Assembly (NCBI GenBank): GCA_017441205.1
Contig: JAFRYG010000024.1
Span: 6,046 to 70,045, forward strand
Source: Pseudomonadota bacterium
Lineage (GTDB): Bacteria > Myxococcota_A > Bradymonadia > UBA4248
DNA: 64,000 nucleotides
Reading direction: 5' to 3'
The notes beneath the pieces are model-generated. The model saw only the letters and a list, made by a program, of their open reading frames with translations. It was not told the origin of the DNA and did no database searches. This document shows, piece after piece, positions 39,159 to 57,121 of this stretch (positions within the stretch are counted from its first letter, which is position 1; each line of letters starts with the position of its first letter). The position numbers and the translations under genes are program-made.

Positions 39159-40535
39159 ATGAAACTATCAACACTCATGCTCAGCTTCGCAGCGGCAATC
39201 TGTCTGGCGATGGGTTCACCTGCTGCCGCCGAGGAGGTCAATATGGCTCAGCAAACACAGGAAAATGTCAAAATTCCGTTCGAACAGTTCACGCTAGATA
39301 ACGGTCTGCGCGTATTTTTGCTGCGCGACAACTCCCTTCCCATCATCACCGTCAATCTGTGGTTCGACGTCGGCTCGAAGGACGAGCAGCCGGGCAGAAC
39401 CGGATTTGCGCATCTGTTCGAGCATCTGATGTTCATGGGAACAGAAAAAGTCCCCAACATCGATATTCTGCTCGAGAGCGGCGGCGGTTCGAACAATGCA
39501 TCCACGCGCGAGGATGTGACGAATTATTACACGGTAGCCCCCGAAAATATGCTCGAAACCGTGTTGTTCATTGAGGCCGACCGCTTTGCGCATCTGGCGG
39601 ATGCGATGACCCAGGAAAAACTCGATAAACAGCGGGATGTCGTGCTGAACGAACGCAGACAATCCTACGAAAATCAGCCCTATGGCAAACTGTGGCTCGA
39701 TTTGCCCACCGTCCTCTATCCCGAGGGCCATCCCTATGCCCATCCGGTCATCGGTTCCGTTCAGGATATCAAAAACGCAACGATCCAGGATGTCACTGAC
39801 TTTTTCAATACTTACTACGTCCCGGCCAATGCCTCGCTCGTCGTCGGAGGCGATTTCGATTCCGAACGAGCCAAGTCGCTCATCACCAAATATTTCGGTG
39901 CCATTCCCAAACGTCCAAAACCTGTCACCGCTGCAATTCCTCAGGTCACAGCACCGGTCAAAACCAGACATACCATTCAGGACGACGTCCAGGTGCCCAA
40001 ACTTACCCTTATCTGGCACTCCCCGGCGTTCATGGCCAAAGGCGATGCCGAACTCGATATTCTCTCCAATATTCTTTGCAAAGGCCAGACTTCGCGCCTC
40101 ATCAACCGCCTCGTCTACGAAAAGCAGCTGGCATCCAACGTTTCGTGCGGCCAGATCTCGGGACTTGCATCCGTGTTCATGATCGATGCCATGCCGCTGC
40201 CCGGCGTTTCGGTCGAAACGCTCGAAGCCGAAATTCTGGATGAACTCTCAAAGATTACCAGGGACGGCGTTTCCGAAGAGGAATTTGCCCGCACCAAAAA
40301 CGGCATCGAAACCGCATTTGTCAAGCAGCTCCAGTCCATCGGTTCGAGGGCCGACAGCTTCAACAGCTACGCATTCTACACCCACGATACGGACTTTCCC
40401 GCAGGTGATCTCAGACGTTACCGCCAGGCAACGACCGCGACGCTCATGGAAGTCATCAAACTCATCTTCAGCGATGATTCCCGCAGAAGCGCCCTCATTG
40501 TTACCCCCCGCACACCATCCGGAGAACAGCAATGA
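39159..40535 (+). CDS. Secreted M16-family zinc peptidase, active subunit (HxxEH).
   Basis: Signal peptide present. The inverted zinc motif 'HLFEHLMFMGTEK' and downstream Glu-containing region are typical of pitrilysin-family enzymes. Confidence 0.8.
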   Translation: MKLSTLMLSFAAAICLAMGSPAAAEEVNMAQQTQENVKIPFEQFTLDNGLRVFLLRDNSLPIITVNLWFDVGSKDEQPGRTGFAHLFEHLMFMGTEKVPNIDILLESGGGSNNASTREDVTNYYTVAPENMLETVLFIEADRFAHLADAMTQEKLDKQRDVVLNERRQSYENQPYGKLWLDLPTVLYPEGHPYAHPVIGSVQDIKNATIQDVTDFFNTYYVPANASLVVGGDFDSERAKSLITKYFGAIPKRPKPVTAAIPQVTAPVKTRHTIQDDVQVPKLTLIWHSPAFMAKGDAELDILSNILCKGQTSRLINRLVYEKQLASNVSCGQISGLASVFMIDAMPLPGVSVETLEAEILDELSKITRDGVSEEEFARTKNGIETAFVKQLQSIGSRADSFNSYAFYTHDTDFPAGDLRRYRQATTATLMEVIKLIFSDDSRRSALIVTPRTPSGEQQ

Positions 40536-42016: not shown

Positions 42017-42160
42017 TTATGAGTTGGGAGTTATGAGTTGGGAGTTATGAGTTGGGAGTTATGAGTTAAGCAATCGCAAAGTTCCTCGCCAATGAATCAG
42101 GTAAGTAAAGTACCAAGACTTCCAACTAAACTCCCCACACCCAACACCCAACTCCCCACT
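42017..42160. repeat. A tandem 14-bp repeat (TTATGAGTTGGGAG x3.6) plus a nearby partial inverse copy (CCCAACTCCCC). This is the left arm of an inverted-repeat pair whose partner is at 57.03 kb.
   Basis: Direct reading. The reverse complement of 57028..57060 shares an exact 22-mer, GAGTTGGGAGTTATGAGTTGGG, with 42021..42042. Confidence 0.75.
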
Positions 42161-42164
42161 CAAT

Positions 42165-45100
42165 ATGCCGCTATTTAACGATTCTTTGCCGCTGCACACC
42201 GAACACATTCTCGGGAAACGCTGCGAAATTCTCCAGAATTACGCACCCAATAACCAGTTCTTTCTCGAAACGCTCCAGATCGAAGCCCCCAAAAACAAAT
42301 CAAGACGGCTCAAAAAACTGCATGCGGCCTGTACGACAGACTTTATTTCCCAGATTTTCAGCCCGCTTCAGTCCGGCAATGAAATCAATTCTGAGCTGAT
42401 TGCGTTCGATTTTGATGAACAAAATGCCCTCTGGCTGCACACCTTCTATCCGGCAGCACAGTCCACGCTATCCATGCGGCTGAGCGCGCTTCCCATCTAC
42501 TCCACCGCGCTCATTCTCAGACTCGAACGCATATTTACCATCGGAATCCACACGAAATCTCCCGTCGATCTGTGTTTTGATTTCCTCGAAACAGCCGTTC
42601 ACCTCCTCGAAAATTCTCCGAACGCACCGTCCGATCTGGCTTTCGATGCGACCACGGCATCGATCTCTTTCAGCCCCATACAGGGTCTCATCGATATTCT
42701 CAACCTCGACTGTGAATACGATCCCGGACATACAAAAGTCTGGATCGACAAGCATCTGCTCCATATCCAGTACGAAGAGGACACGCTGATCCTCCCTCCA
42801 TCCAAACCTCAGCTGCCGCAAACCATCGAAGTTACTCGCTTTTTTGATACCAATCCAACCGAATCCCTCGACGAAAATCTGTCCGATATTCAGGCATTTG
42901 ATTTCGAAGATCCCAGTCTCGAAGTCCAGGATATCTCCAAAAGCGAAGAACTCTCGATGTTCAAGCTGATTCGGGAATTCGGAAAATCCCCCAACGACAA
43001 GCGCCAGAATTGGCTGATGTCCGAAGATTCCGATGTCATTCCCACTGCTGCGCTCACCACAAACACGCCACCGCCCTTCAATGTAAAAAATATTGATTTG
43101 GACTGTCCGACATTAATGGCCATCCATATGGCCATTCATTCCGGCGAGGGAATATCTCCGGAAGCAGCGAAACTCGTTCTCGAAGAAGCCCAGCAACATC
43201 TCCCCCCTGTGCTCAGGCCGGCACTTCTCTACATGCTCCACTTCTGGGCACCTTCCCTGGATGAAGAGATCAAGCTCGAAGCCCTCAATGACTCCGCTGC
43301 GCCATCGCCATCCCCTCTGATCATCAGTATTCTCAAGGATATTTATCGCACCCAGAACAGCGACACGATGCTGATCGCCCTTCTGCAGCGACAGATCAAT
43401 GCCTGTACGTTCAACATCCATCAGACCATTGCGCTCGAACTCGAAAGCATCGGAATTCTGGCTTCAAAGCTCGAGATGCATACCGTTGCCCTCAAACGGC
43501 TCGAAGCGCTCAAATCCACAGTTCTGCAGCATGGCAATCCACAGGAACGCATTCGGTTTGCACTCTGTTACCACCACTCCCAGTATACCGGAATGGCCAT
43601 ACAATATCTCAGACTATGGATGAACCAGGCCGAAGATCCCCAGACGACTGCACTCTATGGCTATCAGCTCGCCAATGTAATGTTCGAACACAATGAACCC
43701 ATGCAGTCGATCATCACAGTCTGCAACCAAATCCTCGATGCCATTCCGCAGCACATCGAAACGCTGGAACTGCTCGCCAGGTGTCTGGAATCCACGAATC
43801 GATTCAGAGATGCATCCGATGCATGGATGCAGTGTTTTGAACGATTTGTCCGTCTTTGGGAAACCGCTCAGCTGCAGTACCAGATGATGCCCTCCAGCGA
43901 CAATGAACTCTGGCTCCATACCTGCCAATCGAGAGCCATCCATGCCGCAGAAATGATCGAAAAATCGATGGATGATCCCCAGGATGCGTCCATCCGGATT
44001 CTCGTTCTCAATGATCATCTGCGTCTGGAACCAGGATCTGTTCGCGTCGTTGCGCGTTTGCTCAAAGATCTCGAAGCAACGCACGCTTTTCACGAAATGG
44101 CACACACCTGCCTCAGTTTTTTAAAGCACAACAAAGGCACCATTTCACCCAAGGATGAAATTGCCATCCGGCTTACCCTGCACAATATCTACGATCGGGA
44201 ACTGGATCGCCCCTACGATGCCATCGAACAGCTCAACAAAGCCCGGGCGCTGTCTGCATTCGATCCCAGAGTCATCTATACAGAAATTGAACGATGCAGA
44301 AAATCCGGACAAAAAAAGGAACAAATCAGTCTGCGCCTCGCCCTCATCGATGCGCTGCCCCCGGCCGAAGCCGTCGAACAAACCCTCGAGCTCGTCAACA
44401 TCTACGAATCCCTCGACACACCGCCGGAGCAGATTGTCGACATTCTGCGAAAAACGAATGCCAGATCCCCAAACAACCCGCAGATCCTGCTCGAACTCCG
44501 TCTGTACCTCAGAAAAATCGGTCAGAACTTCGAACTGGCAACCGTACTGGAAAAGCTGGCAAGAGTTACGCAGGATCTCCAAATGCGTAAGAATATTCTG
44601 CTCGAAGCCAGCGAAGTAAACGAAAAGCTCGGCAATATTCAGATCGCACAGTCGCAGTACCACGAAGCACAGCTGTGCAGTCCCATTGACCCCGACAATA
44701 ACGACGGCTTTATGCCGCAGAGTATTCACGGGGATTTCATGGCAGACGGCCCTCAGTATCAGGCATCATCGCCGCTTTCCTCCATGATGCTGACCTCCCG
44801 ATCCCTGTCCATCGTCGAAGATATTTCGGGACTTCTCTCAGATCCATCCATATCCAACGTCGATCAAATCCTCGACGATACCACGACTCCACCGGGAACC
44901 CCTTCCTCCCAGAACACGCCCATATCGAATATCCTGCAGAACACGCCCCCGAATGCCCAGAGCGAACCTTCGCCGAACGAAGTATCTCACTCAGGATTTG
45001 ACAACATGCTCGCGGATGATGCCCCGCTCGAAGACCAAATCGTCGAAGCCCGTATCCGGGGCAATACCCAGGCGCTTCTCGAACGGCTGCTGCTCTCCAT

Positions 45101-46346
45101 CCAATCCATTCCCGAAGCCGAACAACCGCCCAGAGTTCTGCAGGAAATCGCATGCATTTATCTGTATGATCGCCATGATCCACAAACGGCGCGCCAGTTC
45201 CTCGAAAGAGCGTCTGCTTTGAATCACGATATCGCGTTCGGCGAGCAGACGCTCAATGCCCTCGAGATAATCTATCAATCCATGAAGATGTATAAGGAAC
45301 TCGCCGAAGTCTATGAGAAGAAATGCGAGATCCTGACCATCGCAGATGAACGAAGAAAGTACGAAATGCGACTCGCACAGATTCGCTATGAGCATCTGGG
45401 ACAGACAGATCTCGCCATCGAAACACTCAATAATCTGCTCCAGCGCATGCCGAAGAACGAAACCGCCCTCCAACTGCTGGCACAAATTTACATCGATACG
45501 CAGAATCCCACCAAAGCCATCGAAACACTCAAAATCATCACGCCGCTGCTGAAACCGGATTCCAAACCGATGGCGCAGCATCTTCTGCGCCTGATTTCGC
45601 TGCATATTCAAAACGACAATATCAATGAAGCCAAAAAACTCATGCATGCGCTGCTCGACCACAATAACTACGTCGATAAACTGGCTGTCATTGAACTCTA
45701 TAAACGAACCTGCCGCGAACACGACGAATGGAACGAACTGCTCGATATTCTCCTGGACGAACTCGCGTTTTATCTTCGCATTCCCAGACAGGAGCTCAAT
45801 CTGTTTGAACTCATCCGGACCAACCAGATGAATACGCTCTCTGCCGGCGTCCATACACTTCGTGAATATGCCGATGTCCTCTATCTGAAACTTCACAGAA
45901 TTGACGAAGCCACCGAAATTTACCAATTCCTGACCAAGCTGCTTCCGGATGATGACTATCCCAAAAATATTCTGTTCGAAATTGCCGAACAGCATCCCGA
46001 AAATGAGTCCGTCATTTCCAGAATAGTGGAGCTCAGTGCACCCCATAAGATGGCATCCATGGCGAGCACATCGGGAACCGCGCTTTTGAGCGATAACAAG
46101 GATACAAGCGCCATTTATGAGGAAATTGAAGCTGCATTCAAGTATATCCAGACCGGTTCCTCCGATTCAGCCAGCCAAAAGCTGACCCAAATCGAAAGTC
46201 AGACCGACGCCATGAAGAGAAAAAAGTACTATGCACCAATTATTTTTGCACTAAGACAGCATTTATATGCTAAGATAGAATCGGGTGCATCTAATCAGAC
46301 GATGGATGAAGGGGAAACGATCCCGCCCGCAGATAATGATTCCTAA
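42165..46346 (+). CDS. Very large (1,393-aa) cytoplasmic TPR/helical-repeat protein.
   Basis: Long arrays of amphipathic helix pairs with TPR-like spacing throughout. No enzymatic motif seen. Confidence 0.45.
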   Translation: MPLFNDSLPLHTEHILGKRCEILQNYAPNNQFFLETLQIEAPKNKSRRLKKLHAACTTDFISQIFSPLQSGNEINSELIAFDFDEQNALWLHTFYPAAQSTLSMRLSALPIYSTALILRLERIFTIGIHTKSPVDLCFDFLETAVHLLENSPNAPSDLAFDATTASISFSPIQGLIDILNLDCEYDPGHTKVWIDKHLLHIQYEEDTLILPPSKPQLPQTIEVTRFFDTNPTESLDENLSDIQAFDFEDPSLEVQDISKSEELSMFKLIREFGKSPNDKRQNWLMSEDSDVIPTAALTTNTPPPFNVKNIDLDCPTLMAIHMAIHSGEGISPEAAKLVLEEAQQHLPPVLRPALLYMLHFWAPSLDEEIKLEALNDSAAPSPSPLIISILKDIYRTQNSDTMLIALLQRQINACTFNIHQTIALELESIGILASKLEMHTVALKRLEALKSTVLQHGNPQERIRFALCYHHSQYTGMAIQYLRLWMNQAEDPQTTALYGYQLANVMFEHNEPMQSIITVCNQILDAIPQHIETLELLARCLESTNRFRDASDAWMQCFERFVRLWETAQLQYQMMPSSDNELWLHTCQSRAIHAAEMIEKSMDDPQDASIRILVLNDHLRLEPGSVRVVARLLKDLEATHAFHEMAHTCLSFLKHNKGTISPKDEIAIRLTLHNIYDRELDRPYDAIEQLNKARALSAFDPRVIYTEIERCRKSGQKKEQISLRLALIDALPPAEAVEQTLELVNIYESLDTPPEQIVDILRKTNARSPNNPQILLELRLYLRKIGQNFELATVLEKLARVTQDLQMRKNILLEASEVNEKLGNIQIAQSQYHEAQLCSPIDPDNNDGFMPQSIHGDFMADGPQYQASSPLSSMMLTSRSLSIVEDISGLLSDPSISNVDQILDDTTTPPGTPSSQNTPISNILQNTPPNAQSEPSPNEVSHSGFDNMLADDAPLEDQIVEARIRGNTQALLERLLLSIQSIPEAEQPPRVLQEIACIYLYDRHDPQTARQFLERASALNHDIAFGEQTLNALEIIYQSMKMYKELAEVYEKKCEILTIADERRKYEMRLAQIRYEHLGQTDLAIETLNNLLQRMPKNETALQLLAQIYIDTQNPTKAIETLKIITPLLKPDSKPMAQHLLRLISLHIQNDNINEAKKLMHALLDHNNYVDKLAVIELYKRTCREHDEWNELLDILLDELAFYLRIPRQELNLFELIRTNQMNTLSAGVHTLREYADVLYLKLHRIDEATEIYQFLTKLLPDDDYPKNILFEIAEQHPENESVISRIVELSAPHKMASMASTSGTALLSDNKDTSAIYEEIEAAFKYIQTGSSDSASQKLTQIESQTDAMKRKKYYAPIIFALRQHLYAKIESGASNQTMDEGETIPPADNDS

Positions 46347-46389
46347 GTATTGTGTGCCTTTTGATAACATTTTAGCCCAGAGTAAGACG

Positions 46390-48435
46390 ATGAAAGTAAA
46401 CAAATTAATTTTGGCGATATCGACTTTAAGTACGTGTACTTTCTTTGCCTGCGCTGACAGTGTGGATAATCCGCAGTCAGTTGCATGTGATCCCAATTCG
46501 ACCCTCTGCGCAGATAATGATTATCAATTGTCATGCGACGCAGCCGGTTCGGATTACAGCGTTCAGGTATGCGAGCACGGATGCAATTCAGAAACGAACA
46601 CATGCAATCCGGCTCCCGCCGACACGAATACGCATACGCCGCAAAATGCCCCCGGCATCGAAGTAAAGCCGGAATGCCAGGAAGACGATGCTTACTGCTC
46701 CAGCGAGGAAGTGTTAAAAAAATGCCTGGATGGCCGCTATTATGACTTCGAATGCACGGAAGACATGGTTTGTGATCCGGAGAGCCAGGCATGCGTGTTG
46801 GTGTCAGAACTCCCCGACAGCGCATGTGATTCCGATACATTTGAGCCTTCCTGCGATGGAAACATGCTCACAATTTGCCTGGACGATGTCATTGTGCGTC
46901 AGGCATGTGATTCCGCTGATTTGTGTGATGCCGAGCATTCCAGATGCCTGCTTCCCGAACCTCCTTCGTGCGGCGACTGCGCCGACGATGAATTCTGTGA
47001 CGAAAAATCACAGACCTGCATGCCGAAAGAATGTGATCTCGATGATGCGCCCAAATGCGTCAATGGACTCGCCTATAAGTCCTGCGATAACTGGCAGTAT
47101 AAAATCCATTCCTGCGGCGACGGATTAAAATGCAAATACGGTCAATGCTACGATCCCAATGGCGCTGAACCTCAGCCACAGCCAGATCCAGACCCTCAGC
47201 CTCCGGTCACGCCTCAACCCGATCCCGATGAGACTGGCACCAATGCCGGATATAATTGTCCTGCCGGACAGATCACCGTCTCCGACAGTGAACTGAAAAC
47301 ATTCTGCGTTCTGGATCCCAATGAACCTCTGGGTGAAGTCAAAGGAAAATCACAGTATTACTGCACGCCCGGTGCCATCGAAGGCCGCTACTGCCGCACT
47401 GTTCCCGCCGAGAATCCAGACTCCAGAGTTTCTATGAAACCTGGACAGAAATGTACCGAAGAACAGCTCAATCCCGCAAGCAACACGCTCAGAGTCCATA
47501 TCATCGACGTCGGACAGGGCGATTCCATCTGGATTCAGACCCCAACCGGACAGAATGTCCTCATCGACGGCGGCGATACCGGTGCCTTCGGAACCGCCGG
47601 CGGACCAATCGTCCACGATTATCTCACATTCCACGGCTTCCCCGCCGGCAGTGAATTCGACGCCGTATTCCTCACCCATCCGCACGCCGATCACTACGGC
47701 GGTCTGGCCAATATCTTCAATAAAGATAAGGATACGAAAAAAGTTAAATACGCCCACGGGATGAAAAATTACATCGATCCCATGGAACCTCAGACCACAG
47801 AAGCTGTCCCGACCGGATATATTAACTGGATTAAGAAAGTTCATAAATATCTGGACAGCAGCCACATCTATATGCCGGCTGAGGATATGTTCAGCACGAC
47901 CACGCCGATGCCCGAAGAGTTCTTTGGTCCCGAGGCCAAGGCCTACTTCATCAGAAGCACCAAAAAGCTTACAAACGCCGCAGGAAAAGCTGCGAATAAC
48001 AATCGCGCATCCATCATGTTCCAGCTCACGTATGCCGGACGTTCGTTCATGTTCACCGGTGATGCCGAAGTAGAACAGGAAGCAGAAGCTATCAGCAAAT
48101 CCCCGGATCATATCGCATCGAACTTCCTCAAGGTCTGCCATCACGGGTCGCCTACATCTTCGAGCGTAAAATTCCTCGATGCCGTTTGGAATTCTATCCC
48201 CAAGGCTGACCGGTATGCTCTGATTTCCAGCGGTCGCGGAAAATTCAGCGGCACATATATTCCCGCCGTCCCAATCCTCGACAGACTCATGTCATACCTG
48301 GAACCGGATCACCTCTACAGCACTTCCGTCGGTGACGACGATAAAACCGAGTCCGAAGCCTATCGCGATGACAACATCCTCATCGTCGTCAAACCCGATG
48401 GCGATTATTACGCCTGCTACGCAGGAACCAATTAA
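46390..48435 (+). CDS. Secreted lipoprotein: N-terminal Cys-rich repeat modules, a Pro-rich linker, and a C-terminal metallo-beta-lactamase fold (ComEC/Rec2-like).
   Basis: Start re-set to MKVNKLILAISTLSTCTFFACADS. At least four Cys-rich modules (e.g. 'CDPESQACV', 'CDEKSQTCMPKEC'). Linker PQPQPDPDPQPPVTPQPDPDE. MBL motifs 'IIDVGQGDSIWIQTPTGQNVLIDGG' and 'VFLTHPHADHYGG'. Confidence 0.65.
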   Translation: MKVNKLILAISTLSTCTFFACADSVDNPQSVACDPNSTLCADNDYQLSCDAAGSDYSVQVCEHGCNSETNTCNPAPADTNTHTPQNAPGIEVKPECQEDDAYCSSEEVLKKCLDGRYYDFECTEDMVCDPESQACVLVSELPDSACDSDTFEPSCDGNMLTICLDDVIVRQACDSADLCDAEHSRCLLPEPPSCGDCADDEFCDEKSQTCMPKECDLDDAPKCVNGLAYKSCDNWQYKIHSCGDGLKCKYGQCYDPNGAEPQPQPDPDPQPPVTPQPDPDETGTNAGYNCPAGQITVSDSELKTFCVLDPNEPLGEVKGKSQYYCTPGAIEGRYCRTVPAENPDSRVSMKPGQKCTEEQLNPASNTLRVHIIDVGQGDSIWIQTPTGQNVLIDGGDTGAFGTAGGPIVHDYLTFHGFPAGSEFDAVFLTHPHADHYGGLANIFNKDKDTKKVKYAHGMKNYIDPMEPQTTEAVPTGYINWIKKVHKYLDSSHIYMPAEDMFSTTTPMPEEFFGPEAKAYFIRSTKKLTNAAGKAANNNRASIMFQLTYAGRSFMFTGDAEVEQEAEAISKSPDHIASNFLKVCHHGSPTSSSVKFLDAVWNSIPKADRYALISSGRGKFSGTYIPAVPILDRLMSYLEPDHLYSTSVGDDDKTESEAYRDDNILIVVKPDGDYYACYAGTN

Positions 48436-48465
48436 TATATAACAAAATAATATATAACAATACGC

Positions 48466-48513
48466 AGCCCCTGTGGATATGACTTGTTCATATCCACAGG
48501 GGCTAAAATTTTG
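48466..48513. terminator. Rho-independent terminator.
   Basis: Hairpin AGCCCCTGTGGATATGA..TCATATCCACAGGGGCT followed by AAAATTTTG. Confidence 0.6.
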
Positions 48514-48514
48514 T

Positions 48515-48668
48515 ACAGACGTGCGAACCACACGTCTCTTCTAAAAATGAATATGCCACGCGCCTTCAGGGCGTGGCTGATTTTTTATATATTAACCCGG
48601 TAATAATCGCGAATCGCACGTTGCTTCTAAAATATACAGACGTGTCGCGACATGTTTCTTATAAAATC
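48515..48668. repeat. Array of four hairpin units of the 'AGACGT..ACGTCT-CTTCTAAAA' family, plus GCCACGCGCCTTCAGGGCGTGGC.
   Basis: Direct reading. The units are ACAGACGTGCGAACCACACGTCTCTTCTAAAAA, CGCGAATCGCACGTTGCTTCTAAAATA and ACAGACGTGTCGCGACATGTTTCTTATAAAATCG. Confidence 0.6.
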
Positions 48669-48676
48669 GAAAACCA

Positions 48677-48973
48677 TCATTTGCGTTTTGGATTGCAGGG
48701 ATACCACCCTCGCTCCACGCGTTTTTTCTGATGATAAAGCTCAACGATGCACCAGAAAAATGTGCATCCCAGAATGCCAAGAATCCCCGAAAGTACCGTC
48801 GACTGAGCAAATAGCGCAAATCCCAGTGTGATACATCCCAAAACAGCAAAGAGCGGCCAACATTTTGTACCCCAGTAATACTCAGCCTTGATCACAATCG
48901 GATGAAATACGCCAATAATAACAAATGATACAATTGCTATCACAATACCGCTAAAATTCAGCTCTTCGAACAT
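48677..48973 (-). CDS. Small (98-aa) integral membrane protein.
   Basis: Three predicted TM helices. Hypothetical. Confidence 0.35.
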   Translation of the reverse strand: MFEELNFSGIVIAIVSFVIIGVFHPIVIKAEYYWGTKCWPLFAVLGCITLGFALFAQSTVLSGILGILGCTFFWCIVELYHQKKRVERGWYPCNPKRK

Positions 48974-48993
48974 AAAACTCCACTAAAACATTT

Positions 48994-49124
48994 TGTCTGC
49001 CGTATTCGCCCCGCGAATAGGCAGACACAGGCCGTGTGTGAAACAGCGGCCAACTGCAAAAAGCGCTGTCTGCCGTATTCGCCCCGCGAATAGGCAGACA
49101 CAGGCCGCGTGTGAAACAGCGGCC
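48994..49124. repeat. Two direct copies (58 bp each, period 73 bp, one mismatch) of a double-hairpin unit (GTCTGCCGTATTCGCCCCGCGAATAGGCAGAC + GGCCG.GTGTGAAACAGCGGCC).
   Basis: Direct reading. Confidence 0.8.
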
Positions 49125-49141
49125 TGCTCATAAAATATCTA

Positions 49142-49912
49142 TTATCCCGGTCCGTAACTGCGTACGAAATTCGGGCGTTCCTCTGCCGGAGCATCTTTTT
49201 CCTTGCGAGGTTTGTAGGCTTTCATGCCGACCTGAGTCATGCCCTTTTCGGTAAAGATGAACAGCGTATTCTTTCTCGAAAGCAGGTCCGCAGTAAGTTT
49301 CGCCGTCGAATTTTTAATATGCCACGGGCTGTCTTCGGTCGGTTCCGATTTCGTAATCTGATCCCAGGGACACAAATAGAATATTTCCTCGAGGAAATTC
49401 CTGAAATCGTTGACAAAATTGACGCTCTGAACATCGATGAATTCAATATTGCCAATATGAGTCTGGCGCATTTCGTCGATCATATCGGTTGCTTCCGTGA
49501 GCGGCAAATCCGCCACATCGAAATTCAAATCGCGCTCCAAGTCGTAATAACGCTCAATCTTCGGGATATTGCGCAAAATGAATTGCGGCGTGCATTCGAC
49601 GACCTGATCATCGACGTCGTTGGGACGTTCGATTTTTGAAGGTTCTGCCGACGATTCGAGCTCCATGCGATGAAGTTCAAAAACATGATTCGCAAAAACG
49701 CTGTAGTCCTGACATATTGGCTTTTCGATATGTACGGATTTCGGCAGCTGACGCACCGAAAGCGCCATATTTTCATCAGCAAAAGCCCATCTCCAGAATC
49801 CGCATTCCGGGCGATGATGGCGACTGGCGAGGTCTTCCGGTCCGAGATCTGCAAAAACTATCGTCATATCGACAGACGACGAATCGGGTGTTTTTACGGT
49901 ATCTTCGGACAT
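49142..49912 (-). CDS. Hypothetical acidic cytoplasmic protein (256 aa).
   Basis: Intact ORF. No recognisable motif. Confidence 0.3.
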   Translation of the reverse strand: MSEDTVKTPDSSSVDMTIVFADLGPEDLASRHHRPECGFWRWAFADENMALSVRQLPKSVHIEKPICQDYSVFANHVFELHRMELESSAEPSKIERPNDVDDQVVECTPQFILRNIPKIERYYDLERDLNFDVADLPLTEATDMIDEMRQTHIGNIEFIDVQSVNFVNDFRNFLEEIFYLCPWDQITKSEPTEDSPWHIKNSTAKLTADLLSRKNTLFIFTEKGMTQVGMKAYKPRKEKDAPAEERPNFVRSYGPG

Positions 49913-50039
49913 GATATGCCTTTTCGATTATTAACTGGCTCTGTCCCCCGAGCGCAGCCATATACTCTCATCTTTTTATTGCTCATGATTACGAATAACC
50001 ATGATTGGCATTCATTGTAATCACTACGGCGCCATGGAT

Positions 50040-50205
50040 GGCGGCGAGAGGCGAGGGAGGCATGTCCAGGGATGGACATTCGACCCGCAACTACGATTGC
50101 ACTGAAAAGCGTGCGGGGGATGTAGGGGGTGTTCACAACCGAACACCCCCTGCCGCGTAAGCGTAAAAAATCAAGCACCCGCGCTGCAAAGCGCGAATGC
50201 AAAAT
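50040..50205. repeat. GC-rich REP-like palindromic cluster (GGCGCCATGGATGGCGGCG; GGGGGTGTTCACAACCGAACACCCCC; GCACCCGCGCTGCAAAGCGCGAATGC).
   Basis: Direct reading. Confidence 0.5.
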
Positions 50206-50220
50206 ATATAAAGTTATATA

Positions 50221-50436
50221 TTATTTATCGCCGTCCGACCCGACGCTGACGCTCGTATGGACTTCTTCTTCCTGCTGATAATATTCACTTGTATAATTGC
50301 ATGTGCGGACGATACCGAGAGCTTCCTCGATCTCCTTTGTCACTTCCATGCATTTTTTTCCCTTAAAACCAACGGGATGAATTTCGACAGAACCATCCGG
50401 ATTGATGGAAAACTCAATTGACTGTTTTGTTGCCAT
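50221..50436 (-). CDS. DUF2997-family small protein.
   Basis: The 71-aa sequence 'MATKQSIEFSINPDGSVEIHPVGFKGKKCMEVTKEIEEALGIV...TSEYYQQE' matches my recollection of DUF2997 consensus (small, conserved Cys, C-terminal acidic tail). Confidence 0.55.
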   Translation of the reverse strand: MATKQSIEFSINPDGSVEIHPVGFKGKKCMEVTKEIEEALGIVRTCNYTSEYYQQEEEVHTSVSVGSDGDK

Positions 50437-50468
50437 CTTATGTTCCTCTCTTCGCGATTAATTCTATT

Positions 50469-50864
50469 CTAGCCCCAGCGCGTTGCCGTCAGTTTGATGA
50501 CGTTCGTCACTTTGTCTTCTTCCATATCCAGGGTGTAGTGCTTCTTCTTCAGTTCCTTGACGACCTTGTGATAAGCATATCGCTGCTGGAGCTGATTGAC
50601 GAACTGCTGCTCATTGACGCCGCGGGTTGCTTCGACGCCCCACCAGTCGGCGAGAAGTTCACATCCATTTTCATTGATGCGCAAACCGACATCATATTTG
50701 CCGCTCACTTTGATAGAAATATCGGCTTTTTCGAGCTGCTGATTGTAACCACGAACATTGACGCCTTCTTCCGAATGTACGCACTCGTAGCCGAGATCTT
50801 TAATTGCCTCGAGGATACATTCAAGATCTTTCATCTTGGATTCAACGGTTGAAAAATGACTCAT
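50469..50864 (-). CDS. DUF1257-family protein (Ycf35-like).
   Basis: 'MSHFS..........L..L..A..DLG' at the N-terminus and 'QRYAYHKVV' near the C-terminus are characteristic of DUF1257/Ycf35 as I recall it. Lies 32 bp upstream of the DUF2997 gene. Confidence 0.55.
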   Translation of the reverse strand: MSHFSTVESKMKDLECILEAIKDLGYECVHSEEGVNVRGYNQQLEKADISIKVSGKYDVGLRINENGCELLADWWGVEATRGVNEQQFVNQLQQRYAYHKVVKELKKKHYTLDMEEDKVTNVIKLTATRWG

Positions 50865-50920
50865 ACTATTCCCTCAACTTAAATCAGTAAAAGTCCCGGC
50901 ATTTTGCCGGGACTGCTCAA

Positions 50921-52474
50921 CTACATCTCAAGATGGCGAATTTGCTTGTCTTCGCTGCTGCTGCCCTCTTCGTCCAGGCTTGCGCGGCGTGCACGGCTCT
51001 TGGCCCAGTCGCGCATGTAATCGATGCGTTCTTTCATCTGATAGGAAAGCGGAATGATTTCGTTGCAGCTGCGAACGACGCTGTCGGTATCGATATCCTT
51101 CTTGGCTTCATACGCATCGAACAGAGAAGAAACGATTGCCTGTTCAATTTCGGATCCCGAAAATCCCTGCGTTGCAGCGACGATGCGCGGAATATCAAAA
51201 TCCGCGACCTTTCGGTTCTTCTTGATGATGTGGATCTCAATGATCGTCTTGCGTTCTGCGGGGCTCGGAAGATCGACGAAGAAGATTTCGTCAAAACGGC
51301 CTTTACGAAGCAATTCCGGCGGAAGCATCGAAACATCGTTCGCCGTAGCGATGACGAATACCGGGCTCGTCTTTTCCTGAAGCCACGTAATAAAGGAACC
51401 GAAAACGCGTGCGCCCGTGCCGCCGTCCGTCGATCCGGACGACTTCGTTCCAGAAAATCCCTTCTCCAACTCATCCATCCACAGAATACACGGCGCGACG
51501 GCTTCTGCCGTTGCGATGGCTTTGCGCATGTTCTCTTCCGAAGAACCGACGAGGGATGAAAACACCTTGCCGACATCCAGACGAAGCAGCGGCATCTTCC
51601 ACAATGCACCGACGGATTTTGCAGTCAGTGACTTTCCGCAGCCCGGCAATCCGAGCAGCAGAATGCCCTTCGGCAATGGAAGTCCGAACTCACGGGCCTT
51701 CGAACTGAAGGCAAGATTACGCGTCTTGAGCCAGCTCTTCAGAATCTCGAGACCACCGATATCGCGAAGCTTCAAATCGGATTGATAGAACTCGAGCAGA
51801 CCATTCTTGCGGATGAGGTTTTTCTTTTCATCGACGATCGTCTCGATATCGAAATCGTGTTTGATGATCAGGCTCTTCGAGAACACGTTCGAGGCTTCGA
51901 CTGCCGTCAGACCGAGAGCTGCTTCGACGACTTTTTCGCGGAAATACGGATCATTGCGTACCTGCTGGCAGAGATCATCCGGAACGCTCTTGAGTACCTG
52001 GAGAACCAGCTCATTGATAACGGTTCGGTTCGGGAGATCATAATCGATCACGCTGACTTCCTTTTCGAGTTCCGCAGGAAGTTTGAATGTCGGGCTCAGA
52101 AGCAGCACGTGCTTCTTGTAGCGACTCGTTTTGAACTCGCGGCTCAGATCACGAAGTCGGCGCGTAACCTGAGGATCCGACAAATACGGATGAAAATCCC
52201 TTAGCACGAACACGGCATCATTTTCGTAACGGAAAATATGCTCCATTGCGCGCTGTGGATCGCGGATATCGTTAAATGTATCGCCATCGCCCCCCTGGAA
52301 CCCTTCCGTACACGACCAGGTCACAAAACGACGATTACGGCGTTCACAAATTTTGCGAAGATTATTTTCAACACGCTCTTCTTCCGTACTCGTGACATAT
52401 AAAAGAGGATACCTTGCACGAATCAGATACTCAATTTCCTCTTCTGAAGAAACATTCGCTCGAATTCCTTCCAT
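50921..52474 (-). CDS. AAA+ ATPase with an ~270-aa N-terminal domain (Ycf46-like).
   Basis: Walker A 'LLLGLPGCGKSLTAKSV'; Walker B 'ILWMDELEK'; sensor/Arg-finger region 'VIATANDVSMLPPELLRKGRFDEIFFVDLP'. A single AAA module at the C-terminus. Confidence 0.85.
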   Translation of the reverse strand: MEGIRANVSSEEEIEYLIRARYPLLYVTSTEEERVENNLRKICERRNRRFVTWSCTEGFQGGDGDTFNDIRDPQRAMEHIFRYENDAVFVLRDFHPYLSDPQVTRRLRDLSREFKTSRYKKHVLLLSPTFKLPAELEKEVSVIDYDLPNRTVINELVLQVLKSVPDDLCQQVRNDPYFREKVVEAALGLTAVEASNVFSKSLIIKHDFDIETIVDEKKNLIRKNGLLEFYQSDLKLRDIGGLEILKSWLKTRNLAFSSKAREFGLPLPKGILLLGLPGCGKSLTAKSVGALWKMPLLRLDVGKVFSSLVGSSEENMRKAIATAEAVAPCILWMDELEKGFSGTKSSGSTDGGTGARVFGSFITWLQEKTSPVFVIATANDVSMLPPELLRKGRFDEIFFVDLPSPAERKTIIEIHIIKKNRKVADFDIPRIVAATQGFSGSEIEQAIVSSLFDAYEAKKDIDTDSVVRSCNEIIPLSYQMKERIDYMRDWAKSRARRASLDEEGSSSEDKQIRHLEM

Positions 52475-52584
52475 TGACGTCTGCTCCTGGCTGCTGGTGA
52501 ATCAAACATGACCAAAAGTCATGCTAAAATCTGTTTTCGTTTATTAATCAGCCGAATCCGTGCGTTCACAGACCAGCTCAATTC

Positions 52585-54618
52585 CTACATCTGCAGTACG
52601 CTGCGCATATCCTTAAGCTTGTCCTTGATCTCCGCAAGCGAGTTCTGACCGGAATCCAGTGAACTGGCGATATCCTCAAAAATAATTTTGGGATCGTAAT
52701 CCTTCAGAACGTTCTCGAGGCGCGTTTTTTCCTGGCCCACGAGCTTAGAAACATCGATCTTCACATAAGCCACGAACACGCGCTGAAGATCCGTAATGCT
52801 TGCATCGAGCATCTCCAAATCGCTGCGCCACTGGCTCACGACATCATTGATGTCGGAATACAGCCCCTTGACGCGTTCAAGCAGGCCACTGTCTGCGCCG
52901 CCCGCCGACTCGCGAAGCGAGGCAATTTGTGCTTCAGCATCGCGAAGCGATTTTTCAAGTGCGGCCACGCGTTCACTGCTGTCGCCGGACTGCATGGATT
53001 CCAGCTCGTGAATGCGATCCCTGAGCCGCTGCACATCCTCATCCGAAGCACTTTCTGCAGCGCTCAGCTGTTTCTGCAGCAACTCCGCCTCACTCGTCTT
53101 GCGGTTCAGACTTTCCCTCACCTGTGCAAGTTCCTGGAGCAATGCTGCACTGTCTCCGCCGCCTTTTGAACGCAGTGAATCCTGCAGCTGCCGAATCTCG
53201 CGGGCGCGATCATTCAGATTACCCTTGAGCTCGCTGAACATGACCTCATGCTGTTCGACGACCTTCTTCATATCGCGGTTCCGGCGCTGGCTCTCTTCGA
53301 GAGATGCATTCAGCGTATCGACATTTTCTTTCAGGCGCTCGACATTCTCGCGCTCTTCCTTGCACGAAAACTGAGCAATATCGAGTTCGCGCTGCAGCTC
53401 TTCCAGGAGGTGATTCTTCTTCGTCAGCTGAACCTTCAAATCCGCTATCGCTGTCTCCGCATTCGATGTCGCCATCCCCTTCGATTCCAGCGTTTCCTTC
53501 AGCGTCTGAAGCTCCATCTTCAGGGATTCCGCCTCATCCTGCGATGTAACGAGATCGCGGCGGCACTCCTGGTACTGCTCTTTCTGGTGATCGAGCTGTT
53601 CCTTGAGCTTGTCGATCATATCCTTCAGACCGGTCACGACCGTTTCATGATATTCATTCCGACGCTCATAATCCGTCAGAATCTGATCGCGCTCATCCAG
53701 CTTTTCCTGAAGTTCCTTGATCACATCGCCATTGCCGGCGCCGGCGCGAGCTTCCTCAAGATCGTGCTTCAGCTTGGCATTCTCTTCCTGAAGTCTGCTG
53801 ACTTCATCCGATGCCGCACCGGAATTATAGGGTGCCCGGGATCGCTGCTGCCCCGATACCGGTTGCTGCGATGACATCGGCTGCTGCATACCCATCGGCT
53901 GCTGCATACCCATTGGCTGCTGCTGGGGTGACATCGGCTGCTGCATACCCATTGGCTGCTGCTGGGGCGACATCGGCTGCTGCATACCCATCGGCTGCTG
54001 CATGCCCATCGGCTGCTGAGCAGCCATCGCCTGCTGGGATGCCATCGGCTGCTGCATACCCATCGGCTGCTGCATACCCATCGGCTGCTGGGGTGACATC
54101 GGCTGCTGCATACCCATTGCGCCCTGCTGAACCGGCCTGCCCATCGGACTGCGATTGTCCTGCTGGTAATTGCCGCGGTTCGAAACCGGGGCCGCCGAAT
54201 AGCCACCGCGATTGTACTGCTGCTGGTACATCGCCGGATTCTGCATCATTCCTGGTGCCATCGGAATCTGATCTGCCATCCGGGGAACATTATCCGCACC
54301 GCCGTCTCCAACGACGCGTATCGAAAAATTCCCGCACAACAGCTCACTGCCCACGAACAGCTCAAGCACCTCTCCCGGCTGAAGCCGCATTCCGTCTACT
54401 TTCGTGCCATTCGTCGGCCTGCTGTTCGGCGGATCCTGTACAAAAAGTTTCCCATCCCGCCAGGTCACCATCGCATGAACTCGGGATACCGACGCGTTCG
54501 TCGTCTGAACACCGCAATCCGGATTGCGGCCTATCATAACGACATTCTTGCGCTCATTGAGCTCTACAGCTTTCTCCCAACCATTTTGATCGTTGTATAC
54601 TAACTTTACCAAGGACAC
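52585..54618 (-). CDS. FHA-domain protein with a Q/M/P-rich low-complexity tract and a ~350-aa coiled coil.
   Basis: The N-terminal ~105 aa form an FHA domain ('VMIGRNPDCGVQTTNASVSRVHAMVTWRDGKLFVQDPPNSRPTNGTKVDG'). About 20 'QQPMGM' repeats follow. The C-terminal half is heptad-rich (LQEENAKLKHDLEE...). Confidence 0.75.
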   Translation of the reverse strand: MSLVKLVYNDQNGWEKAVELNERKNVVMIGRNPDCGVQTTNASVSRVHAMVTWRDGKLFVQDPPNSRPTNGTKVDGMRLQPGEVLELFVGSELLCGNFSIRVVGDGGADNVPRMADQIPMAPGMMQNPAMYQQQYNRGGYSAAPVSNRGNYQQDNRSPMGRPVQQGAMGMQQPMSPQQPMGMQQPMGMQQPMASQQAMAAQQPMGMQQPMGMQQPMSPQQQPMGMQQPMSPQQQPMGMQQPMGMQQPMSSQQPVSGQQRSRAPYNSGAASDEVSRLQEENAKLKHDLEEARAGAGNGDVIKELQEKLDERDQILTDYERRNEYHETVVTGLKDMIDKLKEQLDHQKEQYQECRRDLVTSQDEAESLKMELQTLKETLESKGMATSNAETAIADLKVQLTKKNHLLEELQRELDIAQFSCKEERENVERLKENVDTLNASLEESQRRNRDMKKVVEQHEVMFSELKGNLNDRAREIRQLQDSLRSKGGGDSAALLQELAQVRESLNRKTSEAELLQKQLSAAESASDEDVQRLRDRIHELESMQSGDSSERVAALEKSLRDAEAQIASLRESAGGADSGLLERVKGLYSDINDVVSQWRSDLEMLDASITDLQRVFVAYVKIDVSKLVGQEKTRLENVLKDYDPKIIFEDIASSLDSGQNSLAEIKDKLKDMRSVLQM

Positions 54619-54721
54619 TTCTCCTTCTTAAAGCGCAAAAGGAAACTACCTCTGTTTTAATGCATTCTCCCCTCTTTTGTCCACACTCCGTTCAAAAATC
54701 CAACGACCATTTGGTAAATCT

Positions 54722-54822
54722 CATTTTTTTGTCACGGGCGCGGCTATCCCGGCTCCGCCGGAATACGCCCGCGCTCGGGCCGGCTATGCGCCTCACGGCG
54801 CATACGCCCGCCCCTATTATTT
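54722..54822. repeat. REP-like GC-rich palindromes with CGTATG/CATACG cores (GGAATACGCCCGCGCTCGGGCCGGCTATGCGCC; CGGCGCATACGCCCGCCCC).
   Basis: Direct reading. Confidence 0.55.
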
Positions 54823-54823
54823 C

Positions 54824-56707
54824 TTATTCAATCGCATAGCGAATCGTCAGCTCAAACGTCTCCGGCGTCGTCCCCAGATCTATCCCCAAATGAAAATTGC
54901 GCTCCGGATCCGCGTCCTGCCACGTAAGCCCGCGCTCACTCACATCCAGATGAAGCAACGATGATCCGCTCTCGAGATCCTTGCCTTTGACTTCCCCCAG
55001 AAGGGATTTGTCCGAAGCCACCAAAACCTCATCTTTTGTGACCTCAAGCTCCGCCCCGTAATCCACATCGTCATCCGCTATCTCCAGATCCGCATCGCTG
55101 TAGTCCGGTGCTTCCTCCGGATTGTCTGCAGCCTTCTTCACTGGCTGATTCCCGAATTCACGCTCAAGACGCTCGTCCGCACTCTCCGAAGAAATCACAT
55201 CCGTCAGAATCGCCAAATCCGCGGCTCGTTCCCCGCGATACAAAGCCGCATATTTTCTGGGATCACCAATATTCCCTTCGTACAGCGCTGCTCCGATATA
55301 ATGTCCTCCATGCGCGATGCGCCTCAGTTTCCCGATATCCGCATCATCCTGTGCAAAAATGTGATTCAGCGCCTCCAGTTCCGGACACTTAAACGGATCC
55401 TGCTTTACCGCATCGCGGTACGAATCCATCCCCGCAATGATCTGCTCTGCAGGTACAGACAGCCAGGCCTCCGCAAGCGGCTTATCCCCTGACGCCGAAA
55501 ACTCCAGTTTCTGCGCCTGCCAGTTCAGTAACCCCCAAATCCACGGCGAAACCTTGGGAACGAAACTCACAACCGTATCAAATCCCAGTACACTCCCCCC
55601 CGAAACCGGCTTTACCTGAAACGTTATCTTCGGAATATTCGATGCAATCCGGCGAAGATCCTTTACACACGCCATTTCCAGTGCCGCACCCCCGTCACTG
55701 CTGAACTTCTTCGCCGTCTCCTGAATTGCAACGAGCTGATTCAGCGCACCGTTAATATCAAACATCCCCACGATACACGTCGAATCCGAAATGCCAAGTC
55801 CGCTCAGCTGCGCACGCGCCGTCTGCCCCTGCGCAGGAACTGCCAGAAGCTCCGGCAAAAGCTGACTCGCGTGCTCATCATCACTCACAACCGTGACGAT
55901 GACATGATCCTTGCCCCAATAAAATGCAAGTTCCCCCTTCTTTCCCGGCGATATCTCCACGAGCGACCAGTGCGAGGTATTCTTGTCCATCTCGCGCATC
56001 TTCACTAGATTCTGCGTCCAGTACGACTCCACGATCTTCCGGAACTTGGGCACATCCTCGAGCGATACCTTCAGTACCGGCGTCTGACGCACAAAATACA
56101 AGACAAAATGCGACATCTGCCTGCCCATAATCCCAATTGACTTCAGCTTCGCCGGCGAAAATGAACGAAATACCCCCTTCAAAAAACCACGAACCGAGGT
56201 TTCAAAGGCCGATCCGGAATCCGGTACTGCCTTCAGATTTCCCATCACGAGGTTTGATGCATGCTTCATGAAATCTTCAACATCCGCTCGCTCAAGATCA
56301 AAATCTCCTGCAGATGCCACCAGCAAAAAACTTCCCCCGGGAACCGTATCCAGCAGCGGATTCATTGCAATTCCCGCCTTTTTCGCAAATACAGGACGAT
56401 AATTGCTTACACCGTACACTCGCTTTTCCTGCACGCCGGAATCTGCTGCCCCCTGCGACTCCGCAGCAGCTTCATCCAGAATCTTCAGCGAATCCTCTGC
56501 CGGAACATCTCCCTGAACATCCGCGTCAGCCTGAATCGCCGCAGGATTCTCTTCCGATTTGGCGACCTCATCCCTGACGGCATCATCCGTTTTCTTGCTG
56601 CACGAAAAACTGAACAAACACAATAAAATGCAAAAAATGCCGCCTGCAATATGAATCGATCGCATTGACTTATCTCTTCTCATCCGCATGTTTTCCAAAA
56701 ATGACAC
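54824..56707 (-). CDS. Hypothetical lipoprotein (~610 aa).
   Basis: The N-terminal hydrophobic segment ends in 'FSFSCSKK' (lipobox-like). The body has no recognisable family. The start may be M at 56665. Confidence 0.35.
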   Translation of the reverse strand: MSFLENMRMRRDKSMRSIHIAGGIFCILLCLFSFSCSKKTDDAVRDEVAKSEENPAAIQADADVQGDVPAEDSLKILDEAAAESQGAADSGVQEKRVYGVSNYRPVFAKKAGIAMNPLLDTVPGGSFLLVASAGDFDLERADVEDFMKHASNLVMGNLKAVPDSGSAFETSVRGFLKGVFRSFSPAKLKSIGIMGRQMSHFVLYFVRQTPVLKVSLEDVPKFRKIVESYWTQNLVKMREMDKNTSHWSLVEISPGKKGELAFYWGKDHVIVTVVSDDEHASQLLPELLAVPAQGQTARAQLSGLGISDSTCIVGMFDINGALNQLVAIQETAKKFSSDGGAALEMACVKDLRRIASNIPKITFQVKPVSGGSVLGFDTVVSFVPKVSPWIWGLLNWQAQKLEFSASGDKPLAEAWLSVPAEQIIAGMDSYRDAVKQDPFKCPELEALNHIFAQDDADIGKLRRIAHGGHYIGAALYEGNIGDPRKYAALYRGERAADLAILTDVISSESADERLEREFGNQPVKKAADNPEEAPDYSDADLEIADDDVDYGAELEVTKDEVLVASDKSLLGEVKGKDLESGSSLLHLDVSERGLTWQDADPERNFHLGIDLGTTPETFELTIRYAIE

Positions 56708-56834
56708 ACCTTCACTACGGGCTCTCTATTACAGGCAACCGCACCGCAGATGTCCAGAAAAATCACTCGTTTTTCTTCGACAAAATCAAATGCTCTTATA
56801 ACAAGAGAGTCGATAACCTCAAAGCCGCTTTGTT

Positions 56835-57066
56835 GTTCGTAGCTTTGAGTTTTGAGTTTTGAGAGGTGAATGAATGACCTGAGAATGAGAATTGGACTGA
56901 GAACAAGAAGACGACTGATGTTAGTGAATAGTGAATAGTGAGTAGTGAATAGTGATGAGAATTTATAGCTTATAGAGAGGGTCGATGTTATCTGTACTTT
57001 AGCAAAAGTCTCGGTGATTGCTTTACGCCCAACTCATAACTCCCAACTCCCAACTCATGATGAGCC
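56835..57066. repeat. Simple-sequence block (TTTGAGTTTTGAGTTTTGAG; GTGAATAGTGAATAGTGAGTAGTGAATAGTGA) ending in CCCAACTCATAACTCCCAACTCCCAACTCATGA. This is the right arm of the inverted-repeat pair with 42.02 kb.
   Basis: Direct reading. A 22-bp exact reverse-complement match to 42021..42042. Confidence 0.75.
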
Positions 57067-57121
57067 ATAAAAAAAAGAGCACCCTTCCGGGTGCTCTCTG
57101 CAATTTCAAAGAACTTATGGA

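Follow-up and report, generated by a model that had tools for sequence, protein, structure and literature searches.

Arms and heptamer arrays of the window

The window, as we call the whole 64-kb stretch of DNA analysed here, contains two short tandem-repeat arrays in mutually inverted orientation, the left and right arms, which bound an interval of 15 kb. The left arm trails the gene for M16B (40532-42016, + strand), which follows that for M16A (39159-40535, +). Within the interval, the + strand encodes a giant TPR protein (42165-46346) and a Cys-rich MBL-fold protein (46285-48435), and the - strand encodes DUF4491 (48677-48973), the hypothetical 256-aa protein hyp256 (49142-49912), DUF2997 (50221-50436), DUF1257 (50469-50864), an AAA ATPase (50921-52474), an FHA coiled-coil protein (52585-54618) and a 627-aa protein with no Pfam hit, listed as a lipoprotein in the first-pass annotation (54824-56707). 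The hypothetical 634-aa protein hyp634 (57122-59026, -) lies beyond the right arm. Pfam scans confirmed the gene content first listed for the interval. On the evidence presented below, the arms are very probably members of a species-specific, dispersed family of GAGTTNN heptanucleotide simple-sequence repeats (SSRs) located 3' of stop codons, and the intervening 15 kb do not form a unit.

The arms were delimited by Tandem Repeats Finder (TRF) and inverted-repeat alignment. The left arm (42015-42075, + strand) consists of (AGTTATGAGTTGGG)x3.8 followed by an 8-nt tail, AAGCAATC. Its array spans 42015-42067 with 100% matches by TRF, slightly more than the x3.6 first read for the same 14-mer. AGTTATGAGTTGGG is composed of the heptamers GAGTTAT and GAGTTGG in alternation, and counted in heptamers the array comprises 7.7 units (42015-42068). 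Its first two bases coincide with the end of the TAG stop codon of M16B (42014-42016), and the M16B coding strand carries its G-rich strand. The right arm (57016-57058, - strand) reads GAGTTGG GAGTTGG GAGTTAT GAGTTGG plus the tail AAGCAATC, with a tandem array of 4.1 heptamers at 57028-57056. It follows the hyp634 stop codon at a distance of 64 nt, and its G-rich strand is likewise on the coding strand of the gene that it trails.

The exact 22-bp reverse-complement partner that had been noticed between the arms was recovered, with the 22-mer CCCAACTCATAACTCCCAACTC at 57028-57049 matching 42021-42042. The ungapped inverted repeat of the arms extends over 43 nt at 81% identity (42033-42075 / 57016-57058) and includes AAGCAATC, the same non-repeat 8-mer adjoining both arrays. 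In the direction of transcription, the left arm is laid out as M16B stop, GAGTTRK array and AAGCAATC, and the right arm (-) as hyp634 stop, intrinsic terminator, GAGTTRK array and AAGCAATC. The arms are mutually inverted because each trails a stop codon and M16B and hyp634 lie on opposite strands.

TRF resolved further heptamer arrays, two of which had been missed in the first annotation. One is an array of opposite orientation at 42129-42161 (AACTCCC/CACCCAA on the + strand, AACTCCC-like x4.7; G-rich on the - strand), which stops 4 nt short of the ATG of the TPR giant. The other is a weak (CATTACG)x2.9 array in the infC-xseA spacer (36848-36867, +; also seen in a periodicity scan), indicating that heptamer arrays also occur outside the two arms. 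The microsatellite-like runs already noted before the right arm correspond to a (TTTGAGT)x2.9 array (56844-56863, +), which is a portion of a degenerate heptamer-periodic stretch of ~130 nt (56832-56963), and to a (TAGTGAA)x4.9 array (56922-56955, +) in the right-arm spacer, upstream of the lipoprotein gene 54824-56707(-). All heptamer arrays of the window are confined to three non-coding spacers (36510-36927, 42017-42164 and 56708-57121).

The over-representation of these arrays is not due to chance. Sites matching GAGTTGGGAGTT with up to two mismatches occur 19 times in the window, compared with 5.1 +/- 2.2 times in shuffles, and 14 of the 19 are inside the two arm spacers. When the whole window was scanned for periodicity, only period 7 (and 14) was conspicuous, always in intergenic DNA. 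More specifically, at a match threshold of 85% period 7 alone among periods 5-9 yielded segments, while at 71% it yielded six, all intergenic, with a few for periods 6 and 12 and none in the window for periods 5, 8, 11 and 13. Outside the arrays, the two spacers align with a local score of 16 (shuffle mean 17.4). Since this score lies within the shuffles, the arms are not copies of a longer element such as a miniature inverted-repeat transposable element (MITE), and that candidate was discarded; the spacers are dissimilar beyond the 8-mer AAGCAATC.

Folding of the RNA from 42005 to 42185 gave a minimum free energy of -46.1 kcal/mol (z = -3.2), and none of 200 shuffles was as stable. The predicted structure is a long imperfect hairpin (42013-42172, +) in which the two inverted heptamer arrays, 60 nt apart, pair with each other; it occupies the whole M16B-TPR spacer, between the M16B stop and the TPR start, and the array at 42129-42161 forms its 3' arm. 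The hairpin has no U-tract and is therefore not an intrinsic terminator. The right spacer shows no unusual structure (z = -0.7) beyond the intrinsic terminator of hyp634 (57074-57099, -), which separates the stop codon from the right arm and consists of an 11-bp stem with a T run behind it. The alternative first put forward, a locally amplified REP-like terminator family (REP, repetitive extragenic palindrome), came close in describing a repeat family at 3' gene ends. However, the arms, as hypermutable heptamer tandems, are neither REP palindromes nor terminators, and the real terminator sits beside the right arm.

Synteny in relatives and variation between strains

Contigs of nine relatives were fetched, and the orientation of conserved blocks was counted over nine related loci. 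Homologues of M16B delimit a small uncultured clade labelled 'Proteobacteria bacterium' at NCBI, and the nearest named relative by this protein is Bradymonadales, at 44% identity. A search of GTDB representatives with the AAA ATPase gave a best match of 63%, which was of no use as a comparator for the arms because the shared synteny is limited to AAA, DUF1257 and FHA.

The relatives retain much of the gene order of the window. In L205-L208 (M16B 59-61% identical), the string xseB-M16A-M16B-TPR giant is followed by a convergent block of hyp250/304-DUF2997-DUF1257-AAA-FHA, and L209 (65%) carries xseA-xseB-M16A-M16B-TPR giant. The TPR giants of L205-L209 measure 1311-1349 aa and are 40-48% identical to the window copy. 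The closest relatives, L082-L084 (M16B 71%), are without the TPR giant, so that M16B is followed directly by hyp256-DUF2997-DUF1257-AAA-FHA and the lipoprotein; an orthologue of the latter (54824-56707) was found only in these three. Across the related loci, the hyp256-to-FHA block is convergent to M16B or TPR in nine of nine.

Because the same gene string recurs in relatives, the M16B-TPR junction, which is the site of the left arm, is judged to be ancestral. The same comparison shows the AAA block to be ancestral, and it faces M16B convergently in every case. The MBL and DUF4491 genes are the sole genes of the interval without a counterpart at this position in all more distant relatives, and they are present in the conspecific contigs L211 and L212, a distribution that marks them as specific to the species of the window. 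The TPR giant (lost in L082-L084) and the MBL-DUF4491 pair vary independently, and the rest of the interval is mostly kept. As gene order is maintained across the left arm in relatives, the interval never behaves as one presence/absence or inversion unit, and alignment with related genomes, proposed as a check in the first-pass annotation, bore this out: it is neither absent nor inverted as a unit in any related or conspecific contig examined. Gene order thus identifies the 15 kb between the arms as ordinary chromosome that is largely conserved in relatives. In L083 and L084, the block from M16A to the lipoprotein gene is inverted relative to infC-MgsA when compared with the window and L082. 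The breakpoints lie in the spacers upstream of infC and of the lipoprotein gene, which correspond to the repeat-rich stretches 36510-36927 and 56708-57121 of the window.

The repeats themselves are not shared. GAGTTNN arrays are absent from all relatives examined, and those with the same M16B-TPR junction have neither an array nor a hairpin in that spacer. Instead, (TGCCTAC)x3 is found twice in L083, once behind M16B and once upstream of the lipoprotein gene, the two being in direct orientation. Since GAGTTNN is missing from relatives and L083 has TGCCTAC in its place, the repeat family appears to turn over rapidly between species. At another place, L205 has a (GTGGAGT)x~12 array.

Composition and gene content give no sign of a foreign or mobile segment. 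Genes of the interval have a GC content of 0.43-0.56 and a third-position GC content (GC3) of 0.43-0.66, compared with 0.40-0.54 and 0.39-0.66 in the flanks, and their codon usage is within the flank range, so the compositional check suggested at the outset revealed no discontinuity. GC skew is negative both inside and outside the interval, whatever the gene strand, and this equality of sign argues against recent or frequent inversion. As initially reported for the interval, no integrase or transposase is encoded; Pfam scans of 38 open reading frames (ORFs), comprising all large ORFs of the window, gave no hit to a recombinase, integrase or transposase. Scans of the window likewise found no tRNA, no direct-repeat attachment sites and, at the gathering threshold, no Rfam family.

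To compare strains, we used two conspecific contigs from other samples, L211 and L212, reached through an MBL homologue at 97% identity; the 64 kb of genome and the conspecific contigs (about 25 kb) make up the material examined within the species. Collinearity of L212 with the window extends over 40418-57589 at ~99% identity, except for the 48.4-48.9 kb spacer and hyp634, and L211 is collinear from 42039 rightwards. The interval has one common orientation in the window, L211 and L212. Its most divergent stretch is the MBL-DUF4491 spacer (48418-48917), which is 91% identical to L212. To the right of the right arm, hyp634 is hypervariable, with 77-84% identity to L211/L212 and many indels, whereas everything to its left is ~99% identical.

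Within this background, the arrays differ by whole units. In L212 the left array is shorter by one 14-mer than in the window, the TAGTGAA array of the window is one 7-nt unit longer than that of L211/L212, and the right arm carries one extra 7-nt unit, AACTCCC, in L211/L212. Between the window and L212 there are 12 indels left of 57122, of which three correspond exactly to units of 14, 7 and 7 nt and are located in arrays making up 1% of the sequence (enrichment p = 2e-4). As the differences between these ~99%-identical strains amount to exact 7- or 14-nt units in three arrays, the changes bear the signature of slipped-strand mispairing, and slippage probably generated them. The L212 spacer, one 14-mer shorter, is predicted to keep the hairpin architecture in a weaker form (-33.6 kcal/mol, z = -1.9).

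A G-quadruplex (G4) reading of the arrays was also considered and rejected. Measured against the G4 consensus (at least four G3+ tracts, loops of 1-7 nt), the arms offer no more than three GGG tracts, separated by 11-nt or mixed loops. The sole canonical motif of the window is at 42133-42157 on the - strand, and a C>T change in L211/L212 removes one of its G-tracts, so that the one fitting array is not conserved between strains.

L211 adds a third locus. To the left of its array, a 411-aa lipoprotein gene takes the place of M16B, with its stop codon 4 nt before TGGGAGTTATGAGTTGGGAG. The junction between the 411-aa gene and the array recurs in L213, which derives from an independent sample and assembler; this contig terminates inside the array and does not show what follows, and the short-read M16B contig L001 likewise terminates inside the array. 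Right of the junction, L211 and L212 differ by one base in 16.4 kb (99.994% identical). In a relative, the 411-aa orthologue is followed by MatE, TatD and TrmO, not by the TPR giant. The L211 junction is either an ectopic recombination that replaced M16B or an assembly chimera formed through an array that the 411-aa gene carries elsewhere, and on either reading the array trails a third unrelated gene. The same array is hence found after at least three unrelated stop codons in the species (M16B, hyp634 and the 411-aa gene), the very pattern that the first-pass annotation had set against its own cassette proposal.

Arrays of this type are not restricted to the species. A scan of JGI metagenomes for GAGTTRKGAGTTGGGAGTT returned at least 120 unrelated contigs (L085-L204) with (NNGAGTT)n arrays, of 31-72% GC and from very different environments. 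The arrays are often (GGGAGTT)n, with up to 31 units. By tblastx, none of the 120 listed contigs is akin to the lineage studied here, and for that reason they say nothing about the repeat census of this genome. At least 16 of the 120 listed arrays have an inverted partner array within 200 nt, and some of these pairs form hairpins. Inverted heptamer array pairs occur in L090, L098, L103, L106, L136 and L161, and also in unrelated genomes such as L018 and L079. Among the matches listed, the arrays recur across many phyla and preferentially between convergent genes (of 57 arrays that could be analysed, 27 have convergent ORFs on either side; p = 2e-4). The published rule that the 5' neighbour is closer found no echo in these metagenome arrays (25 vs 31, on crude ORF calls). 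In 1.26 Mb of unrelated genomes, period 7 was the commonest.

Readings of the arrays

The reading that we prefer, a dispersed SSR family at 3' gene ends, accounts for the arms as follows. The family unit would be GAGTTNN, mostly as the compound 14-mer GAGTTAT-GAGTTGG, and its arrays would follow stop codons closely in non-coding DNA, each having its G-rich strand on the coding strand of the gene that it trails. Whole units would be gained and lost through replication slippage, as the strain comparison suggests, and the arrays may serve as short homologies for ectopic recombination, a role to which one conspecific contig points. In the M16B-TPR spacer, the array is predicted to pair with the inverted C-rich heptamer array and to form a long intercistronic hairpin, whose modelled stability varies with copy number and which could modulate expression of the TPR giant. 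The right arm, located past an intrinsic terminator, is most likely a neutral DNA-level repeat.

Several points weigh against this account. The description as a dispersed family is based on three 3'-end loci in the material covered. Furthermore, that the loci have the compound 14-mer and the 8-nt tail AAGCAATC in common suggests that some mechanism copies arrays from locus to locus, as opposed to independent slippage, and slippage alone does not account for this sharing. The L211 junction could be an assembly chimera, given contigs that differ by a single base over 16.4 kb. Finally, the predicted stability of the hairpin is not conserved between strains (z = -3.2 vs -1.9), and relatives are predicted to have no such hairpin.

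It is possible, although on balance doubtful, that the arrays are chiefly substrates of ectopic recombination that reshuffles gene neighbourhoods, with the 411-aa gene-array-TPR giant arrangement of L211 as one product. The position of the breakpoint between L211 and L212 inside the array, next to 16.4 kb of near identity, speaks for this, as do the recurrence of the 411-aa gene-array junction in an independent sample and the different neighbours of the 411-aa orthologue in a relative. A rearrangement role has also been proposed for long heptamer arrays by MacGregor 2015 (PMC4679880). However, a short-read assembly can be misjoined through a shared repeat of 30-45 nt, the reciprocal product was not seen, and the L213 contig stops within the array before its downstream neighbour.

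A functional RNA structure is a less likely reason for the arrays to exist. Here, they would form an intercistronic hairpin that sets translation or mRNA stability of the TPR giant relative to M16A/B, or act as REP-like 3' stabilisers. In agreement with such a role, the left spacer is predicted to fold from the stop codon to 4 nt before the start, L212 keeps the same architecture, and the inverted array pairs of other phyla, together with the preference of the listed metagenome arrays for sites between convergent ORFs, point in the same direction. The right arm fits poorly, as it follows a strong intrinsic terminator in a spacer of ordinary predicted stability. In addition, relatives with the same M16B-TPR junction have neither hairpin nor array, copy number and hence stability drifts between strains, and covariation can lend no support because the arms are simple repeats.

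A composite of these ideas, to which we give little credence, holds that GAGTTNN arrays are copied between 3' gene ends and act as hypermutable recombinogenic joints, with copy number tuning the hairpin before the TPR giant and exchange swapping M16B for the 411-aa gene. If true, this would amount to SSR-based operon rewiring in an uncultured lineage, in which upstream genes are swapped whole between otherwise identical strains.

We consider it improbable that the arrays are contingency switches, toggling the lipoprotein gene 54824-56707 and the TPR giant by phase variation. Published heptamer families are not preferentially associated with surface or contingency genes (PMC4692102). Whole-unit copy-number polymorphism in three arrays of near-identical strains is what such switches would display, one downstream gene encodes a predicted lipoprotein, and the adjacent hyp634 is hypervariable. 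Nevertheless, the arrays in question are situated upstream of the lipoprotein start at 137-350 nt, none was found within a -35/-10 spacer, and the G-rich arrays are anchored to the stop codon of the upstream gene, not to a downstream promoter.

The first proposal, of a 15-kb cassette that is invertible or was acquired horizontally and has the arms as its recombination sites, is very improbable: a real inverted repeat does flank the interval, MBL and DUF4491 within it are species-specific, and hyp634 beyond it is non-syntenic in relatives as well as hypervariable, but the left arm is set inside the conserved xseB-M16A-M16B-TPR string, the AAA block is conserved, the identical array also trails a third, unrelated gene, a single orientation is seen, mobility genes and compositional breaks are lacking in the window, and, with 22-43 nt of imperfect homology, RecA-dependent exchange is at its lower limit.

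The dispersed-family reading carries a caution for the annotation of similar loci. Two dispersed SSR copies that trail genes on opposite strands will always mimic inverted repeats bounding a cassette, and synteny in relatives quickly settles such cases. The arrays also break short-read assemblies and may yield chimeric contigs. The present locus adds an uncultured lineage, with Bradymonadales as its nearest named relative, to the organisms with intergenic heptamer arrays, and offers direct strain-level evidence of whole-unit slippage as well as one candidate array-coincident rearrangement.

Neighbouring repeats and known repeat systems

Other repeat families are present nearby. A REP-like nested-hairpin family, made up of a GC-rich outer stem, CTAT, an inner stem-loop, ATAC(G) and the outer stem, often occurs as adjacent pairs. 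It is found in the window at 11237-11265, 25838-25917, 29530-29600, 48990-49125, 54740-54815 and 62270-62345, and in relatives at L082 9715-9805, L083 10655-10715 and L209 10640-10900. A 57-nt unit of this family is directly duplicated at 48994-49125. Copies of a second small palindromic family, TACAGACGT...ACGTCTCT(TCTAA), lie at 6257-6293, 36798-36834, 48516-48545, 48630-48665 and 62440-62455, and two of them form a 37-nt inverted pair of 89% identity. The MBL-DUF4491 spacer holds copies of both palindromic families, along with a perfect bidirectional terminator at 48466-48504. A structured intergenic element of ~200 nt lies between the hyp256 start and the DUF2997 stop (50002-50198), with a second copy (89.5%) upstream of the 411-aa gene (L211 3363-3562). 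As the L211 copy is missing from the 99%-identical L213, the element looks like a recent, MITE-like insertion, and no transposase was seen for it.

Some genes of the window contain tandem repeats of their own. The hyp634 gene holds 87/93-nt tandem repeats (57422-57722), the FHA coiled-coil gene an in-frame 18/54-nt array (53860-54117), and the ORF at 20908-22686 a perfect 30-nt tandem duplication (22030-22089). The AAA ATPase is 92-97% identical in relatives whose adjacent genes reach only 40-76%, and the AAA-DUF1257-DUF2997 cassette occurs in at least 597 GTDB species representatives belonging to many phyla of bacteria and to some archaea. Neither the TPR giant nor the 627-aa lipoprotein had an exact match on record when its protein sequence was looked up. 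The general negative GC skew has one exception, a positive island at ~5000-8000 of the window with EEP-family and GT2 genes, which may be a locally inverted or acquired segment.

Among known systems, the invertible segments of Hin/Gin/Cin, fimS and the shufflons resemble the locus in having inverted repeats at both ends. They differ in that no recombinase gene and no second orientation were seen here, the arms are part of a larger repeat family, and the DNA between them is conserved chromosome. REP elements and bacterial interspersed mosaic elements (BIMEs) are likewise small repeats scattered through intergenic DNA at 3' ends of genes, able to fold into hairpins and to disrupt short-read assemblies. 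In contrast to these, the arms are direct tandem repeats and not self-complementary palindromes of about 20-40 nt, and a hairpin needs a second, separate array. No RAYT (Y1 transposase), the enzyme associated with REP elements, was found in the 64-kb window.

Heptamers are the most abundant class of long SSRs in bacteria, where they are intergenic and near stop codons on the coding strand (PMC4692102, PMC4679880), and their function is unresolved (PMC4692102; PMC4679880; bioRxiv 10.1101/2022.06.06.494920). The TAACTGA repeats of marine Beggiatoaceae, Cyanobacteria and Bacteroidetes (MacGregor 2015, PMC4679880) are comparable as short intergenic heptamer arrays with a patchy phylogeny and a unit common to unrelated phyla; a translational or rearrangement role was proposed for them, not shown. 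Unlike the G-rich arrays described here, which trail stop codons, they mostly lie a few nucleotides upstream of start codons.

A closer positional match is provided by the GGGNATC and GGGGA(C/T)T repeats of Xanthomonas and Nostoc (Rehm et al. 2015, PMC4692102). These G-rich arrays favour sites within 50 bp past a stop codon in the coding strand or within 50 bp before a start codon in the non-coding strand. Of this rule, the first part (0-50, or up to 100, nt after the stop) fits the arrays after M16B, hyp634 and the 411-aa gene, and the second (up to 50 nt upstream of the start) fits the array 42129-42161 before the TPR giant. As in that study, the arrays are unlinked to mobile elements or particular gene classes. 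Unlike the repeats of Rehm et al., the arms, with three GGG tracts and 11-nt loops, are outside the G4 consensus.

The arrays correspond best to the heptanucleotide long SSRs of Mrazek et al. 2007, which PMC4679880 and PMC4692102 summarise and which include the cyanobacterial short tandemly repeated repetitive (STRR) heptamers (Calothrix PCC 7601, cited in PMC4692102). According to these summaries, the systems share head-to-tail 7-nt units in 3-5 intergenic copies, a unit that differs between related genomes and strain-level variation in unit number. The occurrence of one unit at several loci of a genome is represented here by three documented loci, against hundreds in Nostoc or Xanthomonas. 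The compound 14-mer GAGTTAT/GAGTTGG and the host lineage are not known to have been described. With at least three head-to-tail copies of a 7-nt unit, an excess of period 7, locations in non-coding DNA near ORF ends and polymorphism between strains, the arrays of the window show these attributes of long SSRs.

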